DNA from: Escherichia phage vB_EcoM_C2-3
Sequence record: OK076929.1
Length of the DNA stretch: 64,000 nucleotides
Reading direction: 5' to 3' (one strand)
Positions 8,717 through 59,520 of this stretch are shown here, one piece after another (positions within the stretch are counted from its first letter, which is position 1; every line of letters begins with the position of its first letter). The translations under genes were made by a program, and so were the position numbers. Below the pieces are notes generated by a model, which was given only the letters and a program-made list of their open reading frames with translations, was not told the DNA's origin and did no database searches.

Positions 8717-8937
8717 TGGCAAAGATAATTATTGAAGGTTCTGAAGATGTGCTAAATGCTTTCGCCGAGTGGTTTAGTAATTCAGGCGAACAGCAATTTA
8801 ATGAAGCGTGGAATATGGGTGATATTAGTGGAATTTATCCTATGACAGAAATTTCTGTTCAGGGATATGGCATTCATGAACCTATTCGTTTAGTTGAATA
8901 CGATTTATGTACTGGTGAGGAAGTCAAATATGATTGA
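8716..8937 (+). CDS. hypothetical protein (73 aa)
   Basis: ORF track; ATG overlaps upstream stop. Confidence 0.5.
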   Translation: MAKIIIEGSEDVLNAFAEWFSNSGEQQFNEAWNMGDISGIYPMTEISVQGYGIHEPIRLVEYDLCTGEEVKYD

Positions 8938-9196
8938 AGATATTAAAGGTTATAAGCCACATACCGACGAAAAAATCGGTAAAGTAAATGCTATTAAAGA
9001 CGCTGAAGTTCGTTTAGGACTTATCTTTGATGCTTTATATGATGAATTCTGGGAAGCACTAGATAATTGCGAAGACTTTGAACTCGCGAAGAATTATGCT
9101 GAAAGCCTCGATCAGTTAGCTATTGCTAAAACGAAACTCAAAGAAGCCAGTATGTGGGCTTGTCGTGCTGTGTTCCAACCAGAGGAAAAATACTAA
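8930..9196 (+). CDS. hypothetical protein (about 88 aa)
   Basis: Start moved to ATG after GAGGAAG SD. Confidence 0.5.
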
Positions 9197-9474
9197 TGGC
9201 TCAATTAAGCGCAGGGTTTGGTTATGAGTATTATACTGCCCCTCGTCGTGTGTCTGCTGCTCCTAAGAAAATTCAAAGTCTTGATGACTTCCAGGAAGTA
9301 GTCCGTAACGCTTTCCAGGACTATGCACGGTATCTTAAAGAAGATTCACAGGACTGTCTCGAAGAAGATGAAATTGCTTACTATACGCAGCGTCTTGAAC
9401 AGCTCAAAAATCTACATGAGGTTCGTGCAGAAGTTTCAAAGTCTATGAATAAATTGATTAGATTTAAAGAATAA
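9196..9474 (+). CDS. hypothetical protein (about 92 aa)
   Basis: Start moved to ATG after GAGGAA SD. Confidence 0.5.
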
Positions 9475-9476
9475 CT

Positions 9477-9506
9477 GTTTACTTTTCCTCTTGACTGTGG
9501 TATAAT
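9477..9506 (+). promoter_or_regulatory. early promoter upstream of regB
   Basis: gtttac 9477-9482, 18 bp, tataat 9501-9506. Confidence 0.55.
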
Positions 9507-9533
9507 TTTTCTATCAGTTAAGAGGAGAACAAC

Positions 9534-9995
9534 ATGACTATCAATACAGAAGTTTTTATCCGTCGAAATAAGCTTCGTCGTCATTTTGAGTCGGAGTTTC
9601 GTCAAATTAACAATGAGATTCGTGAGGCATCAAAAGCAGCAGGAGTCTCATCGTTTCATCTAAAATATTCTCAACATCTTCTTGATCGTGCAATTCAACG
9701 GGAGATTGATGAGACATATGTTTTTGAATTATTCCATAAAATAAAAGACCATGTTTTAGAAGTTAATGAATTCCTGAGTATGCCTCCGCGTCCTGACATT
9801 GACGAGGATTTTATTGATGGGGTTGAATATCGTCCTGGACGTTTAGAAATCACAGATGGAAATCTTTGGCTTGGATTTACGGTTTGTAAGCCTAATGAGA
9901 AGTTCAAAAACCCGTCACTTCAATGCAGGATGGCAATTATCAACAGTCGTCGTTTACCAGGAAAGGCTTCTAAAGCAGTAATTAAAACTCAATGA
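9534..9995 (+). CDS. regB: RegB site-specific endoribonuclease
   Basis: 153 aa, recognised as T4 RegB; strong AGGAG SD. Confidence 0.9.
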   Translation: MTINTEVFIRRNKLRRHFESEFRQINNEIREASKAAGVSSFHLKYSQHLLDRAIQREIDETYVFELFHKIKDHVLEVNEFLSMPPRPDIDEDFIDGVEYRPGRLEITDGNLWLGFTVCKPNEKFKNPSLQCRMAIINSRRLPGKASKAVIKTQ

Positions 9996-10002
9996 GGTAA
10001 GC

Positions 10003-10548
10003 ATGAGAAAAGCACTACTCGCTGGTCTATTGGCCATTTCAATGATGGCACATAGCTCCGAGCATACTTTCAGTAATGTCCAACTCGATAACATGCGTTA
10101 CGCGTATCAATTCGGGGAACAATTTTCTAAGGATGGAAAATATAAAACACACAAAAATATCCACAAGAGCGGATTAGGTCATATAATGGCTGCTATTTTA
10201 TGGCAAGAAAGCTCTGGCGGAGTTAATTTAAAATCTAAACCAAAGCATCACGCTTATGGAATGTTCCAAAATTATTTGCCTACTATGCGAGCAAGAGTTA
10301 AGGAACTTGGTTATAATATGACCGATGCTGAAATAAAAAGAATGTTGAATAAACGATCCAATTCAGCTTCCTGGGCGTACATTGAACTTTCTTATTGGTT
10401 AAATATACATAAGGGCGATATAAGAAAAGCAATATCATCTTATAATTCGGGATGGAATGTTAAAGCAGGTTCTAAATATGCTTCTGAAGTCCTAGAAAAG
10501 GCTAATTACCTTAAAAATAATAAACTTTTGGAAATAGTAAATGACTAA
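10003..10548 (+). CDS. periplasmic lytic-transglycosylase-like protein (signal peptide)
   Basis: N-terminal signal peptide; ILWQESSGG ... GMFQ resembles SLT-domain catalytic region. Confidence 0.5.
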   Translation: MRKALLAGLLAISMMAHSSEHTFSNVQLDNMRYAYQFGEQFSKDGKYKTHKNIHKSGLGHIMAAILWQESSGGVNLKSKPKHHAYGMFQNYLPTMRARVKELGYNMTDAEIKRMLNKRSNSASWAYIELSYWLNIHKGDIRKAISSYNSGWNVKAGSKYASEVLEKANYLKNNKLLEIVND

Positions 10549-10888
10549 AATTTTGGTTTTATGTATAGGATTAATTTCATTTTCTGCTTCTGCGTCAGCA
10601 GATACATCATATACTGAAATTAGAGAATATGTAAATCGCACTGCGGCAGATTATTGTGGGAAAAATAAAGCATGCCAAGCTGAATTTGCGCAGAAATTAA
10701 TATATGCATATAAAGACGGAGAAAGAGATAAATCAAGCAGATACAAAAATGATACATTGTTAAAACGATATGCTAAAAAGTGGAATACCTTAGAATGTTC
10801 AGTTGCGGAGGAGAAAGATAAAGCCGCTTGTCATTCAATGGTTGACCGTTTGGTAGATTCTTATAATCGAGGATTGAGTACTAGATGA
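10541..10888 (+). CDS. vs: valyl-tRNA synthetase modifier Vs (secreted, 115 aa)
   Basis: 115 aa with signal peptide, position between regB and tk as in T4. Confidence 0.6.
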   Translation: MTKILVLCIGLISFSASASADTSYTEIREYVNRTAADYCGKNKACQAEFAQKLIYAYKDGERDKSSRYKNDTLLKRYAKKWNTLECSVAEEKDKAACHSMVDRLVDSYNRGLSTR

Positions 10889-11352
10889 TTGTAAAATATA
10901 TCAAGGGCGATATTGTCGCCCTTTTCGCTGAAGGTAAAAATATTGCGCATGGATGCAATTGTTTTCATACTATGGGTTCAGGCGTAGCGGGTCAATTAAC
11001 CAAAGCTTTCCCTAAAATTTTGGAAGCTGATAAATTACAGACTGAATGGGGTGATGTAACTAAACTCGGTTCTTACTCAGTCTATGAAAAATACTTTAGG
11101 ACTCATAAAGCGTATTGCTTCAACCTTTATACTCAATTTCAACCAGGGCCAAATTTTGAGTATTCCGCTTTAATGAATTGTATGTTAGAATTAAATGAGT
11201 TTGGTGAAAATAAACTGATTAAACCTACAATCTATATGCCTAGGATTGGTGCAGGCATAGGTAAAGGGAACTGGGATATTATTGAGGGGATTTTAGATAC
11301 ATATTCCTCTAAATTAGAAATTGTGATTGTTGATTGGGAACCGTTATTATGA
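10885..11352 (+). CDS. macrodomain-like protein (ADP-ribose binding/processing fold)
   Basis: N-terminal GDI...AHGCNCFHTMGSGVAG resembles macrodomain nucleotide-binding motif. Confidence 0.5.
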   Translation: MIVKYIKGDIVALFAEGKNIAHGCNCFHTMGSGVAGQLTKAFPKILEADKLQTEWGDVTKLGSYSVYEKYFRTHKAYCFNLYTQFQPGPNFEYSALMNCMLELNEFGENKLIKPTIYMPRIGAGIGKGNWDIIEGILDTYSSKLEIVIVDWEPLL

Positions 11353-11561
11353 ATATACATTATCCACATCCATATGACCCAAAGAATAAGGCAGTAATTA
11401 TTCGTCAATGGGAACGCATTTGCCGTACTAAATGTCCAATTAATAGTCCGCATGATGTAGATAAAGACTACATTGGAACATTCGTTGAATATACCTTTAT
11501 TGATAAGAAAGGTCGTAAACAGCATGTAGAAGAATACTGCTTAAAGGTTACATGGTTATGA
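11349..11561 (+). CDS. hypothetical protein (about 70 aa)
   Basis: ORF track frame; start moved to MNIHY. Confidence 0.45.
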   Translation: MNIHYPHPYDPKNKAVIIRQWERICRTKCPINSPHDVDKDYIGTFVEYTFIDKKGRKQHVEEYCLKVTWL

Positions 11562-11764
11562 GCCAAACTAGTATTCTTAAAAATGCCCATTGTGAAAAGT
11601 GTAAATGGCCAGTTGTTTTTGCTTTATGCAACGATGAAATGGCTTGTGATTTCGATTATTGGTGCTATTGTTCTAATAAAGGATGCATCAATCATAAAGG
11701 TGAAGGATTTTATTCGGGATTTTATCCTTATCCAGATTTCGTTAAAGAAGGTAAACCGAAATGA
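11552..11764 (+). CDS. hypothetical Cys-rich (zinc-binding?) protein (70 aa)
   Basis: CEKCKWP ... CDFDYWCYCSNKGC cysteine clusters. Confidence 0.5.
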   Translation: MVMSQTSILKNAHCEKCKWPVVFALCNDEMACDFDYWCYCSNKGCINHKGEGFYSGFYPYPDFVKEGKPK

Positions 11765-11934
11765 ATAGTTTTGAGTTACAGTATGAAGTGTTACGTGAGC
11801 TTGATAATTTAATTGAACTCGCTGTCAATAAAGGTTTTGCCATTGGAATCGGTCAAAAAGATACTGGTCATTTAACTATGGAAATATTTAAGCAAAAGCG
11901 AATTATTTTAAAACTCCTGGAAATTAATATATGA
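11761..11934 (+). CDS. hypothetical small protein (57 aa)
   Basis: ATGA-coupled small ORF, below ORF-track size cutoff. Confidence 0.35.
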   Translation: MNSFELQYEVLRELDNLIELAVNKGFAIGIGQKDTGHLTMEIFKQKRIILKLLEINI

Positions 11935-12116
11935 GTCTGAGTAAAGAACAAAAAGATAAATTGTTTGAGCTTATCCATGAACTTCTAGATGAGCATACAG
12001 AAGCAAACACCTTTTATGATGAATACGGCCCGCTATCTCCCGAACAGCAAGAAGAATTTGCTGATCGGTTTGATAAGAAAGAAAACGAATTAATAGCTTA
12101 TGTGAATATGCTTTAA
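11931..12116 (+). CDS. hypothetical protein (61 aa)
   Basis: ORF track; acidic small protein. Confidence 0.45.
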   Translation: MSLSKEQKDKLFELIHELLDEHTEANTFYDEYGPLSPEQQEEFADRFDKKENELIAYVNML

Positions 12117-12125
12117 GAAGGTGAT

Positions 12126-12707
12126 ATGGCGAGTTTAATTTTTACTTACGCAGCAATGAATGCTGGAAAATCTGCTTCTCTTTTGACTGCTGCACATAAT
12201 TATAAAGAACGCGGAATGGGTGTATTAGTTCTTAAGCCTGCTATTGATACTCGCGATTCTGTCTGTGAAGTCGTTTCTCGCATTGGAATTAAGCAGGAAG
12301 CGAATATTATTACGGATGATATGGATATTTTTGAGTTCTATAAATGGGCTGAAGCACAAAAAGATATTCATTGTGTATTTGTAGATGAAGCTCAGTTTTT
12401 AAAAACTGAACAGGTGCATCAATTAAGTCGAATTGTTGATACATATAATGTTCCTGTTATGGCTTATGGGCTAAGGACTGATTTCGCTGGAAAATTATTT
12501 GAAGGTTCTAAAGAACTTTTGGCGATTGCAGATAAACTTATTGAACTAAAGGCAGTTTGTCATTGTGGTAAAAAAGCTATTATGACAGCTCGATTAATGG
12601 AAGATGGAACACCAGTTAAAGAAGGTAATCAAATCTGTATTGGTGATGAAATTTATGTTTCTTTGTGTAGAAAACATTGGAATGAATTAACTAAAAAGCT
12701 CGGTTAG
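12126..12707 (+). CDS. tk: thymidine kinase
   Basis: 193 aa, P-loop MNAGKSAS, recognised as T4 Tk. Confidence 0.9.
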   Translation: MASLIFTYAAMNAGKSASLLTAAHNYKERGMGVLVLKPAIDTRDSVCEVVSRIGIKQEANIITDDMDIFEFYKWAEAQKDIHCVFVDEAQFLKTEQVHQLSRIVDTYNVPVMAYGLRTDFAGKLFEGSKELLAIADKLIELKAVCHCGKKAIMTARLMEDGTPVKEGNQICIGDEIYVSLCRKHWNELTKKLG

Positions 12708-12716
12708 TGCAAAAGT

Positions 12717-12724
12717 TATAAATA
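12717..12724 (+). promoter_or_regulatory. late promoter (TATAAATA)
   Basis: Exact TATAAATA upstream of 12750 ORF and rI. Confidence 0.45.
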
Positions 12725-12749
12725 GGTTTATCTAACTAAAGGGGTATAT

Positions 12750-12962
12750 ATGCTACAATTAACTGAAAAGCAACTTCGCAATCTTACTGTGCTTCAATTA
12801 GATGAAATTCGTAGGGAAGTTGGAAATATCATTTCAGCTTTGCGTCGAGAAGTATCACTCAACCAATCTCCGGCAGACTATACTAGATTGCGAAATTTTG
12901 AAAAATACCTTGATAAAGTTAAGGCCGTGCATCGGCATAAAGTAAATACAGGACAAAAATGA
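12750..12962 (+). CDS. hypothetical protein (70 aa)
   Basis: ORF track; GGGG SD. Confidence 0.5.
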
Positions 12963-12974
12963 TAGGAGGCCTTT

Positions 12975-13268
12975 ATGGCCTTAAAAGCAACGGCACTATT
13001 TGCCATGCTAGGATTAGCGTTTGCTTTATCTCCACCAATTGAAGCGAATGTCGATCCTCATTTTGATAAATTTATGGAATCTGGTATTAGACACGTTTAT
13101 ATGCTTTTTGAAAATAAAAGCGTAGAATCATCTGAACAGTTCTATAGTTTTATGCGAACGACTTATAAAAATGACCCGTGCTCTTCCGATTTTGAATGTA
13201 TAGAGCGAGGCGCGGAGATGGCACAATCATACGCTAGAATTATGAACATTAAATTGGAGACTGAATGA
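12975..13268 (+). CDS. rI: lysis inhibition regulator RI (antiholin)
   Basis: 97 aa with N-terminal signal-anchor, recognised as T4 RI. Confidence 0.85.
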   Translation: MALKATALFAMLGLAFALSPPIEANVDPHFDKFMESGIRHVYMLFENKSVESSEQFYSFMRTTYKNDPCSSDFECIERGAEMAQSYARIMNIKLETE

Positions 13269-13651
13269 AATTCAGCGACTTTTCACAAAGTGGAAAACCT
13301 TCAAAGGCAGATGAATACTTAGGTTTATTAATGGCTGCACAAGCTTATTTTCATTCTGCACATTTTGAAACTAAAAGTTATGCTAGACACAAAGCATACG
13401 ATTTTATTTTCTCCGAGTTGCCAGATTTGATTGATAAATTTGGTGAGCAATATTTGGGGTATTCTGGTAGAAAATACACGCCTTCAATTCCAGATGCCAG
13501 TAAACTTCCTACCGACACAATTAAAATGATTGATCGCATACTAGATCAATCTAACAGCATTTATAAAGAAATGCCTCCAGCCATTCAAAGCACGATAGAT
13601 GATATTACTGGAATGTTTTACCAGAGTAAGTATCTTCTTTCCCTCGAATAA
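13265..13651 (+). CDS. hypothetical protein (128 aa)
   Basis: ORF track; ATGA overlap with rI stop. Confidence 0.55.
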
Positions 13652-13654
13652 CAT

Positions 13655-13679
13655 TAGTCTCCTTCGGGAGACTTTTTTC
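13655..13679 (+). terminator. intrinsic terminator (agtctcc-ttcg-ggagact + TTTTTT)
   Basis: 7-bp stem, UUCG loop, T6 run. Confidence 0.65.
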
Positions 13680-13688
13680 ATTTTACCG

Positions 13689-13718
13689 GTTTACTTTCCG
13701 TTTGAGCTGTGGTACTAT
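13689..13718 (+). promoter_or_regulatory. early promoter
   Basis: gtttac 13689-13694, tggtactatacaactatc cassette. Confidence 0.5.
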
Positions 13719-13746
13719 ACAACTATCGGATAAAGAGGAGAACATC

Positions 13747-13935
13747 ATGAAAATTGAAGCACTTAATCAAGAAGGAAATATCTACGTCATCATTAATGGT
13801 GATTTTTTCGTCGACATGGATGAAGTTACTAGTGAAGAACTTGTAGAACTTCTTAAGAAACGTTATGATATGTGTGATGAAGCTGCAACTCATATGGCGT
13901 GTGCAATATTCTCTCTTTCATATGTGGTGGAATAA
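13747..13935 (+). CDS. hypothetical protein (about 63 aa)
   Basis: Start moved to ATG after AGAGGAG SD. Confidence 0.5.
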
Positions 13936-14138
13936 TGACTAGAATTGAACAAGCAGATAAAATTAAAGAATTGGTAGCTTTAATTCGCAAAGCAGATGAG
14001 GAACTTAGTGACTTTGCTTGGTTTTCGGCAGGCATTGCAAATAAAGGTATTGAAAAATTTGAAGCTAAAGTTGATAATGCTGTAGAAGCTTTAGATATGT
14101 TTCTTGATGAAATTATCGATCATAATACGAGAGTTTAA
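13935..14138 (+). CDS. hypothetical protein (about 67 aa)
   Basis: Start moved to ATG overlapping upstream stop. Confidence 0.45.
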   Translation: MTRIEQADKIKELVALIRKADEELSDFAWFSAGIANKGIEKFEAKVDNAVEALDMFLDEIIDHNTRV

Positions 14139-14140
14139 TT

Positions 14141-14335
14141 ATGCTAACACGTGAACAGTTTGAAAAAATCATTAAATTAGCACGTGATATTGAAATAGAT
14201 TCATACCAATTAGCAGTTGAGCATTGTGAAGGATATTCATACGACGGTATAGAAGCAGCTAAAAAGGATTTGGATAAATCCAAAGCTAAGTTAGTTCAAT
14301 ATCTTGAAATGATTAGGTGGAATAATGAAAACTGA
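14141..14335 (+). CDS. hypothetical protein (64 aa)
   Basis: ORF track. Confidence 0.45.
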   Translation: MLTREQFEKIIKLARDIEIDSYQLAVEHCEGYSYDGIEAAKKDLDKSKAKLVQYLEMIRWNNEN

Positions 14336-14498
14336 AAAGCAGATGTTTTTAATGAAACTAATTGAAGAATATGCTAATGCAGTTTCTGACTATGAGTATT
14401 CTGCTCGGGAAAGAGGTACAGCTTTCGCAAAGGAAGAAATGAAAATCATGGTTGATGCTCACACAAAGCTTCAGAATTTTATTGAAAACGCCATTTAA
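14325..14498 (+). CDS. hypothetical small protein (57 aa)
   Basis: Overlap-coupled small ORF below size cutoff. Confidence 0.35.
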   Translation: MKTEKQMFLMKLIEEYANAVSDYEYSARERGTAFAKEEMKIMVDAHTKLQNFIENAI

Positions 14499-14500
14499 TG

Positions 14501-14537
14501 GTTTACAAGTTGGCAAGATTATGATATAGTAATCTTG
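14501..14537 (+). promoter_or_regulatory. early promoter with -10 inside perfect 8-bp inverted repeat
   Basis: gtttac 14501-14506; caagatta (14514-14521) / taatcttg (14530-14537) flank tgatatag. Confidence 0.5.
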
Positions 14538-14665
14538 TCAACTGCCAAGGAGAAGAGAATGAAAGTTTTGTTTGTTGTGTATGTGATGATTCAATATAAT
14601 TATCCAATGTTTACTTATAATCTGGTGAACAACATTATTGATATTATTCAAAGGAGTATGTAATT

Positions 14666-15223
14666 GTGGGTGAGTCGAAGAGAATCAATATGAAACGATT
14701 AGTATTAGAAGTTAGTCCGCTTTTTGGTGAATTAGCTATAGAAAAAGTAAATAATATGTATCGTTTGACACAAGAAGACGATATGCTATATTTTACGCCT
14801 AGTGAAATCATTCATTTAACCCAAATTGAATATCCTTATACTGATAAAATAGTAAGCATCAATGATGAGCACAAAATTCATTTTTATTCTTCATGCCCAG
14901 GATTTAATATTAAAAGTGAGTCAATGTGTTTATCAGTTATCCATTGGGATAGTTTTATAGATAAGATTAAATATTTTTATTATTCTAATGAAAGAAAACA
15001 TAGTTTAAAATGGCTCAAAAATTGCAATGCTATTATTACTAACGCTTGCAATCAGAATGATGAAACTGTTTTAAACGTATCAAAATGCTATGAAGATGGT
15101 GATGTCTTAACTATTCGTCAAATTGATGATTTTCGATCGTATATTGTCACATTTACCAAAGACGAAGCTATTGCGCTAAAGACTTATCTCGATTCTGTCA
15201 TTCCAACTATGATTTCAAAGTGA
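14666..15223 (+). CDS. hypothetical protein (185 aa), paralog of next ORF
   Basis: GTG 14666 after AAGGAG, or ATG 14690; C-terminal DEAIALKTYLDSVIPTM shared with 15230 ORF. Confidence 0.5.
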   Translation: MGESKRINMKRLVLEVSPLFGELAIEKVNNMYRLTQEDDMLYFTPSEIIHLTQIEYPYTDKIVSINDEHKIHFYSSCPGFNIKSESMCLSVIHWDSFIDKIKYFYYSNERKHSLKWLKNCNAIITNACNQNDETVLNVSKCYEDGDVLTIRQIDDFRSYIVTFTKDEAIALKTYLDSVIPTMISK

Positions 15224-58297: not shown

Positions 58298-58921
58298 ATG
58301 ATTATTAATCTTGCAGATGTTGAACAGTTATCTATAAAAGCTGAAAGCGTCGATTTTCAATATGATATGTATAAAAAGGTCTGTGAAAAATTTACTGACT
58401 TTGAGCAGTCTGTTCTTTGGCAATGTATGGAAGCTAAAAAGAATGAAGAGCTTCATCGGCAATTGAATAAAATCATTAAAAAGCATTTAACTAAATCACC
58501 TTATCAATTATATCGTGGTATATCAAAATCGACAAAAGAACTCATTAAAGATTTACAAGTTGGAGAAGTGTTTTCAACGAACAGGGTAGATTCATTTACT
58601 ACTAGTTTGCACACAGCATGTGGGTTTTCTTATGTTGAGTATTTCACTGAAATAATATTTCGCTTAAAAACTGATAAAGCTTTTAATTATTCTGACCATA
58701 TCAGCGATATTATACTTTCTTCTCCTAATACTGAATTTAAGTATACATATGAAGATACTGATGGATTAGATTCAGAGCGTACTGATAACTTAATGATGAT
58801 TGTGCGTGAACAAGAATGGATGATTCCAATTGGAAAGTATAGAATAACTTCTATTTCAAAAGAAAAATTACACGATTCATTTGGAACATTTAAAGTTTAT
58901 GATATTGAGGTAGTTGAATGA
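58298..58921 (+). CDS. modB: ADP-ribosyltransferase ModB
   Basis: 207 aa; R-S-E ADP-ribosyltransferase signature (YRG, STxS region, EQEWMIP). Confidence 0.75.
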   Translation: MIINLADVEQLSIKAESVDFQYDMYKKVCEKFTDFEQSVLWQCMEAKKNEELHRQLNKIIKKHLTKSPYQLYRGISKSTKELIKDLQVGEVFSTNRVDSFTTSLHTACGFSYVEYFTEIIFRLKTDKAFNYSDHISDIILSSPNTEFKYTYEDTDGLDSERTDNLMMIVREQEWMIPIGKYRITSISKEKLHDSFGTFKVYDIEVVE

Positions 58922-59520
58922 AATACTCAGTAATGCAACTAAAAGATTTTAAAATAAAATCAATGGATGCATCGGTGCGTGCTTCTATTCGTGAAGAATT
59001 ACTTTCTGAAGGATTTAATTTATCTGAAATTGAACTTTTAATTCATTGTATTACTAATAAACCAGACGATCATTCTTGGTTAAATGAAATAGTCAAATCT
59101 CGTTTGGTTCCAAACGATAAACCTCTTTGGAGAGGTGTTCCAGTTGAGACTAAACAGATGTTAAATCAAGGAATTGATATTATTACATTTGATAAAGTAG
59201 TATCAGCTTCATGTGATAAAAATATAGCTCTACATTTTGCTTCTGGATTAGAATACAACACACAAGTTATTTTTGAATTCAAAGCTCCTATGGTGTTTAA
59301 TTTCCAGGAGTATGCTATAAAAGCTTTACGTTGTAAAGAATATAGTCCGAGTTTTAAGTTTCCGGATAGCCATCGCTATCGTAATATGGAATTAGTTTCA
59401 GATGAACAAGAAGTAATGATACCAGCTGGAAGTGTATTTAGAATTGCAGATAGATATGAGTACAAAAAGTATTCAACATATACTATCTATACTCTTGATT
59501 TTGAAGGATTTAATCTATAA
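58918..59520 (+). CDS. modA: ADP-ribosyltransferase ModA
   Basis: 200 aa paralog of ModB (WRG, SAS, EQEVMIP). Confidence 0.75.
   Translation: MKYSVMQLKDFKIKSMDASVRASIREELLSEGFNLSEIELLIHCITNKPDDHSWLNEIVKSRLVPNDKPLWRGVPVETKQMLNQGIDIITFDKVVSASCDKNIALHFASGLEYNTQVIFEFKAPMVFNFQEYAIKALRCKEYSPSFKFPDSHRYRNMELVSDEQEVMIPAGSVFRIADRYEYKKYSTYTIYTLDFEGFNL

Follow-up and report, generated by a model that had tools for sequence, protein, structure and literature searches.

A predicted glutamine-type active site in the anti-DarT macrodomain Tk.4 (AdfM) of T4-like phages

The described proteins closest to Tk.4 of phage T4 belong to the TARG1/ALC1-like clade of macrodomains, taken here to comprise TARG1, DarG, SCO6735/BT1257 and Poa1p. 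The catalytic residues of DarG from T. aquaticus (structures 5M31/5M3E; M. tuberculosis DarG, 5M3I) are N22 and K80, and those of AdfM (gp104) from the chimallivirus PhiKZ are N23 and K78 (PMC13309987). PhiKZ AdfM removes ADP-ribose from DarT2-modified DNA in vitro (Cell Rep 2026, PMC13309987). SCO6735 from Streptomyces coelicolor (PDB 5E3B; Gln85/Ala130) and BT1257 from Bacteroides thetaiotaomicron (PDB 2FG1/2AFC; Gln82/Ala128) form a subgroup without the catalytic pair of TARG1 (PMC5087735). SCO6735 strips thymidine-linked ADP-ribose off DarT-modified DNA faster than DarG or TARG1 and shields Streptomyces against DarT; activity is abolished in its Q85A mutant, almost lost in N27S and reduced in G128E (PMC9411070). 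Hydrolysis of T-ADPr or U-ADPr is a property of TARG1-like macrodomains only (PMC13036486).

T4 deleted for both adfA and adfN stays resistant to DarTG2 (PMC11825919), from which a further factor was predicted; the finding made with tk.4 fits. In a HIDEN-SEQ preprint of November 2025, a T4 transposon library was passed through an E. coli host producing DarTG2, and tk.4 was the sole significant gene; a clean knockout of this gene made T4 sensitive to DarTG2, and tk.4 received the new name adfM, for anti-DarT factor Macrodomain (bioRxiv 10.1101/2025.11.20.689424). The phenotype was obtained with darTG2 carried on a plasmid, at 30 C and in minimal medium, and tk.4 was dispensable on plain K-12 (bioRxiv 10.1101/2025.11.20.689424). 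Removal of ADP-ribose from DNA "seems likely" according to the same preprint, which cites structural similarity to M. tuberculosis DarG (bioRxiv 10.1101/2025.11.20.689424). The T4 gene and its anti-defence role are therefore already known, and the present finding is not a new discovery of either. What is compared here is the active site of Tk.4 with those of the proteins above.

The tk.4 locus and its neighbors

The window analysed was a 64,000-nucleotide stretch from Escherichia phage vB_EcoM_C2-3 (GenBank accession number OK076929.1). The original prediction had placed a 155-aa ORF in the tk-vs interval, and this ORF was recovered at 10885..11352 on the + strand, running from ATG to TGA and encoding one macrodomain and no further domain. 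Its product shared 100% identity with T4 ORF 60.5 (Tk.4) over 155 aa, and its position between vs and tk.3 matched the gene order around T4 tk.4. BLASTN analyses identified 98.6% identity to T4 across window positions 9000-11562 and 94.9% across 12126-15000, and no match in reference T4 for 11563-12125. Given the identity of its flanks, the 11563-12125 segment was read as a swapped cassette. By nucleotide comparison, the window represents a close relative of T4 that is distinct from the reference genome. Three small ORFs were found between tk.3 and tk, where T4 has tk.2 and tk.1; they lie at 11552-11764 (70 aa; Pfam Phage_zn_bind), 11761-11934 (57 aa) and 11931-12116 (61 aa; DUF7438).

The genes around tk.4 are, in order, regB (9534..9995), vs.1 (10003..10548; 181 aa with an SLT domain), vs (10541..10888) directly upstream, tk.3 (11349..11561; 70 aa, DUF7202) directly downstream and, after the three small ORFs, tk (12126..12707). 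The stop codon of vs overlaps the start codon of tk.4 in an ATGA at 10885..10888 (+), which suggests translational coupling of the two genes, and a second ATGA at 11349..11352 (+) joins the stop of tk.4 to the start of tk.3. A putative Shine-Dalgarno sequence, GAGGA, was read at 10869..10873 (+), within the end of vs and 11 nt 5′ of the tk.4 ATG; a ribosome_binding_site is listed under the matching region in GenBank X04567. The overlaps at both ends, together with GAGGA, place tk.4 in a densely packed run of genes on the same strand. The nearest strong coding-strand match to a σ70 consensus lies upstream of regB at 9478..9506 (+; TTTACT-17-TATAAT, with TG) and is a weak candidate for an early promoter of the regB-vs.1-vs-tk.4 run, given that a promoter scan of the tk.4 region returned as many promoter-like sites as expected by chance; for the same reason a dedicated tk.4 promoter is not claimed.

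Several further features of this region were recorded. Codons 7-13 of tk.4 (K-G-D-I-V-A-L) contain, at 10903-10923, an inverted repeat with perfect 8-bp arms (AAGGGCGA-tattg-TCGCCCTT). On the minus strand, a T-run comes after the repeat, which was flagged there as resembling a terminator; it may have arisen by chance from conserved GD-motif codons or may form an RNA or DNA hairpin. The vs.1 product, a hypothetical protein in RefSeq T4, carries a lytic transglycosylase domain of the SLT type (Pfam E value, 1.4e-5) and an N terminus that resembles a signal peptide. At about 8933-9196, an 88-aa protein occupies the position of T4 vs.4; we take it to be the anti-CBASS cyclic-nucleotide sponge of the Acb2 type. 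On that reading, the regB-tk region would hold two anti-defence genes less than 2 kb apart. Of all T4 genes, vs, which is joined to tk.4 by ATGA, was reported to show the strongest depletion in minimal medium (bioRxiv 10.1101/2025.11.20.689424), the medium also used for the DarTG2 assays; polarity or coupling between the two genes is conceivable.

Fold and active site of Tk.4

The original prediction had called the protein macrodomain-like from its N terminus, and this call was upheld by several searches. Pfam Macro (PF01661) matched Tk.4 with 27.7 bits against a cut-off of 22 (E value, 2.9e-6; profile positions 2-113 of 118). A single-sequence search of solved macrodomains returned BT1257 first (1.3e-9), then Poa1p, SCO6735, DarG and TARG1, and a Tk.4 profile built from 85 homologues matched BT1257 (5e-19), TARG1 (7e-16), SCO6735 (5e-15), M. 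tuberculosis DarG (5e-14) and T. aquaticus DarG (3e-12). AlphaFold2, run on the alignment of the 85 homologues, likewise backed a macrodomain with a model of pLDDT 95.4 and pTM 0.91, in which a mixed β-sheet lies within a three-layer α/β/α fold. The predicted ADP-ribose-binding loops were both present, loop 1 as N-x(5)-G-x-G and loop 2 as P-x-I/L-G-x-G, and the corresponding residues N25...G31-S-G33 and P119-R-I-G122-A-G124 varied little or not at all across 165 homologues. In structure and sequence, Tk.4 was nearer to the TARG1/ALC1-like clade than to MacroD, PARG, macroH2A or the viral X-domain. Together, the Pfam, structure-database, profile and AlphaFold2 results identify Tk.4 as a single-domain TARG1/ALC1-like macrodomain.

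The presence of a macrodomain in tk.4 has been recognised for years, as RefSeq T4 labels the gene "phosphatase; contains A1pp phosphatase motif". PHROG also uses the name 'phosphatase' for Tk.4-type proteins, and several newer T4-like records use "macro domain protein". The 'phosphatase' label was judged to be an untested name transfer from the A1pp domain.

The N-terminal signature quoted in the original prediction was present as G8-D9-I10 and A21-HGCNCFHTMGSGVAG-36. G8-D9-I10 (10906..10914, +) forms the 'GD' motif and aligns with 'KGDLF' of TARG1; G8 was found in 79/80 and D9 in 78/80 bacterial homologues. The Asp of the macrodomain GD motif contacts adenine. Loop 1, assigned from alignments and homologue invariance, spans H22-G23-C24-N25-C26-F-H-T-M30-G31-S32-G33-V-A35 (10948..10989, +), and loop 2, predicted to bind the diphosphate, spans P119-R-I121-G122-A-G124-I-G126-K-G128-N-W130 (11239..11274, +). 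Between the two loops lies Q84 (codon CAA; 11134..11136, +), which takes the place of the catalytic Lys and was invariant in 85/85 phage or metagenome homologues and 80/80 bacterial homologues. H22, N25, D49, N80, Y82, G122, G124 and W130 were invariant or nearly so in both sets.

Q84 aligns with the catalytic lysines TARG1 K84, DarG K80 and PhiKZ AdfM K78, the surrounding motif being NLYTQ in Tk.4 compared with LITK and FPTK, and N25 aligns with DarG N22 and SCO6735 N27. Relative to DarG, Gln84 stands where the catalytic Lys80 would be (T83-Q84 in place of a T-K motif), the C-terminal DarT-binding domain is missing, and the operon holds no DarT partner, the phage neighbors being vs and tk.3. 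Relative to human TARG1/OARD1 (PDB 4J5R), the catalytic pair K84/D125 is replaced by Q84/G126. The NCBIfam DarG model (NF048014) scored 30.3 bits with Tk.4, against a cut-off of 250, over model positions 2-146 of 338, and the PADLOC DarG model scored 36 bits (E value, 1.3e-9). PhiKZ gp104, in contrast, is DarG-like, with an E value of 9e-25 to M. tuberculosis DarG, a PADLOC DarG score of 133 bits, and FPTK containing K78. PhiKZ gp104 and Tk.4 share the name AdfM, a proposed anti-DarTG2 role and a broad clade; however, gp104 falls in the Lys-type, DarG-like subfamily and Tk.4 in a Gln-type one. A BLASTP comparison of the two gave only a 23-residue match (E value, 0.005), and on this ground their placement in one family was rejected.

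The same glutamine aligns with SCO6735 Q85 and BT1257 Q82. HMMER alignments were used for these two proteins, as a six-sequence MAFFT alignment misplaced BT1257 near the Gln motif. Reading from SCO6735 to Tk.4, H24 (H22), N27 (N25), Q85 (Q84) and G128 (G124) are kept, A130 corresponds to another small residue (G126), and V25, which acts through its backbone, corresponds to G23 by backbone only. Tk.4 Q84/G126 thus fits the Gln plus Ala/Gly pattern of the SCO6735/BT1257 subclass, and H22, N25 and G124 are equivalent to residues whose mutation in SCO6735 abolishes or strongly reduces activity. The two DNA-binding lysines that SCO6735 has together with an extended mobile loop are not kept, K34 being replaced by S32 and K89 having no counterpart (in the alignment with SCO6735, FQPGPN follows Q84 and positions 85-90 hold no Lys). 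The absence of these lysines leaves membership in the strict subclass uncertain, and Tk.4 was filed as a related Gln-type family. Identity to BT1257 is only 27-29% and the profile score for BT1257 (71.8 bits) stands modestly above that for TARG1 (61.6 bits), so the shared Gln could be convergent. The settings also differ, in that Tk.4 is a phage counter-defence gene and SCO6735 a DNA-damage-inducible cellular gene.

Residues that are invariant or nearly so as a property of the Tk.4 family itself were C24, C26, D49, Y82 and T83, with C24 and C26 being invariant or nearly so depending on the sample (85 phage or metagenome sequences versus 80 bacterial). D49 and Y82 could point to a different or wider substrate range. 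On the alignments overall, the Tk.4 active site reads as Gln-type and lysine-independent, and not as DarG-like.

Distribution and bacterial relatives

The T4-type macrodomain was found in 2,750 of 50,697 phage records and the DarG-like macrodomain in 276, making the T4 type approximately 10 times commoner. Carriers had Straboviridae-sized genomes or were myoviruses of ∼85 to 160 kb, with hosts including Escherichia, Salmonella, Pseudomonas, Vibrio, Acinetobacter and Bacillus. Bacterial relatives of Tk.4 were identified at 526 loci or more (one genome per species). The best 80 of these were mostly stand-alone ORFs of ∼150 aa, from Rhodobacteraceae, Desulfobacterales, Verrucomicrobia, cyanobacteria, Bacteroidota and other groups.

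From the 80 loci, 147 immediately flanking ORFs were extracted, and 137, belonging to 79 homologues, were scanned with Pfam and PADLOC. The 137 ORFs matched 128 different Pfam families, and no recurrent partner gene was found among them. DarT was not among the 25 commonest Pfam/PADLOC families of these ORFs, a tally in which a single DarT could be hidden. An origin of the T4 type as an orphan antitoxin from a DarTG operon was rejected, as no DarT neighbor appeared among the matches listed. Capture from a DarTG2 operon is thus an unlikely origin for the T4 type, in contrast with the DarG-like PhiKZ type. NADAR-domain proteins (3/137) and AbiLi-like AAA_21 ATPases (5/137) were also recorded among the flanking ORFs. 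A macrodomain beside a NADAR protein would pair erasers of thymine- and guanine-linked ADP-ribose; T4 has the same pairing in AdfM and AdfN, which are encoded at separate loci.

Proposed activity of Tk.4 and its alternatives

The reading preferred here, to which we assign a probability of about 75%, is that Tk.4 is a Gln-type ADP-ribosyl glycohydrolase that removes the ADP-ribose added to thymidines by DarT2 and so cancels DarTG2. Under this proposal, tk.4 would be made from the regB-vs-tk transcription unit as a stand-alone 155-aa macrodomain. The host toxin DarT2 places ADP-ribose on thymidines of single-stranded phage DNA, and Tk.4 would take it off, which would restore phage replication and cancel the defence. 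In the predicted active site, Asn25 is proposed to hold Gln84, which in turn would position the distal ribose, with the chemistry left to a backbone-positioned water, as for the SCO6735/BT1257 type. Since a Gln-type site has been proven on thymidine-ADP-ribose in SCO6735, such activity is chemically plausible for Tk.4 in the absence of the DarG lysine. The in vitro data belong to PhiKZ gp104, whereas for T4 AdfM we infer catalysis of thymidine-ADP-ribose removal by the Gln-type mechanism. An eraser that acts on an ADP-ribose-based defence had been suggested in the original prediction, and this suggestion agrees with the published phenotype of T4 Tk.4 against DarTG2 (bioRxiv 10.1101/2025.11.20.689424).

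A wider proposal, advanced tentatively and considered rather unlikely, is that T4-type AdfM represents, in phages, a large Gln-type family separate from DarG whose cellular members stand alone, that this family works independently of lysine, and that, in the manner of SCO6735, it may act on ADP-ribose attached to uracil in RNA or to acidic residues of proteins besides that on thymine in DNA.

Neutralisation of DarTG2 mainly without catalysis, whether as an inhibitor bound to DarT2 or through masking of its DNA substrate, is unlikely in our estimation. The catalytically dead forms SCO6735 Q85A, DarG K80A and TARG1 K84A do inhibit DarT in vitro, SCO6735 most strongly (PMC9411070), and AdfA and AdfB have been described as direct DarT inhibitors (PMC13309987). 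However, DarG binds its toxin through a separate C-terminal domain and Tk.4 consists of the macrodomain alone, and DarT is absent beside the bacterial relatives among the matches listed. In addition, the H, N, Q and G residues of SCO6735 hydrolysis are invariant in the 165 homologues, which come from unrelated phages and bacteria; this fits a conserved enzyme rather than a binder of one fast-evolving toxin.

Tk.4 could instead remove base-linked ADP-ribose more broadly, from uracil in RNA and/or from Glu/Asp-linked marks on proteins in addition to thymine in DNA, so that DarT2 would be one among several host ADP-ribosyltransferases opposed by it. SCO6735, TARG1 and DarG hydrolyse U-ADPr RNA besides T-ADPr DNA (PMC13036486), and SCO6735 also removes Glu-linked ADP-ribose from protein (PMC5087735). 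The 2,750 phage records of the T4 type, compared with 276 for the DarG-like type, across many host genera, and the varied, non-DarT contexts of the cellular homologues point the same way. Against this breadth, the T4 screen found tk.4 for DarTG2 only among the systems tested (bioRxiv 10.1101/2025.11.20.689424), and we regard the broader activity as improbable.

The original prediction had also linked the protein to ModA and ModB, which were located in the same window as tk.4 at 58918..59520 and 58298..58921, respectively. The gene sets of T4 containing ModA/ModB and tk.4 are both expressed early. A role for Tk.4 in reversing the ADP-ribosylation or RNAylation marks left by the phage's own Alt, ModA and ModB nevertheless appears very unlikely, and the link was rejected on phage distribution and linkage specificity. 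Alt, ModA and ModB modify arginine (PMC8120803); the activities reported for the TARG1 clade are on Glu/Asp esters, thymine and uracil, with none on arginine in those reports (PMC5087735, PMC9411070, PMC13036486), and SCO6735 failed to reverse modification by the Streptomyces ART SCO5461 (PMC5087735). Phage records with the Tk.4-type macrodomain exceed those with ModA/B homologues by at least 1,740, and the macrodomain has 184 records in Pseudomonas and 129 in Vibrio, neither of which is one of the ten ModB genera among the matches listed. The dispensability of tk.4 on plain K-12 likewise speaks against such a role (bioRxiv 10.1101/2025.11.20.689424).

Action on small ADP-ribose derivatives, as an ADP-ribose-1′′-phosphate phosphatase, an O-acetyl-ADP-ribose deacetylase or a Thoeris-like sink (the "signal sink" of the original prediction, for which no support was found), can be set aside as extremely improbable, as it derives from names carried over from the generic A1pp domain, the sole known tk.4 phenotype is against DarTG2, a DNA-modifying system without a small-molecule signal, no link of tk.4 to Thoeris or another signalling system was found in the literature examined, and Poa1p carries Ser where Tk.4 has Gln84.

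With Tk.4 read as a Gln-type glycohydrolase acting on the thymidine modification of DarT2, a catalytically dead variant would be Q84A or N25A, because the protein has no catalytic lysine to mutate. The comparison also affects annotation, namely the 'phosphatase' name given to Tk.4 by PHROG and RefSeq. Its main addition is that the two proteins named AdfM, T4 Tk.4 and PhiKZ gp104, belong to different macrodomain subfamilies, Gln and Lys, respectively, and membership of a Gln-type family bears on whether the Tk.4 family has wider substrates. In tk.4, a model phage is seen to overcome a toxin-antitoxin defence based on DNA ADP-ribosylation, with T4 now having three layered anti-DarT factors in AdfA, AdfN and AdfM. 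If the Gln type were a broad eraser, the commonest phage macrodomain would offer general protection from a number of host ADP-ribosyltransferases and would not be specific to DarT2.
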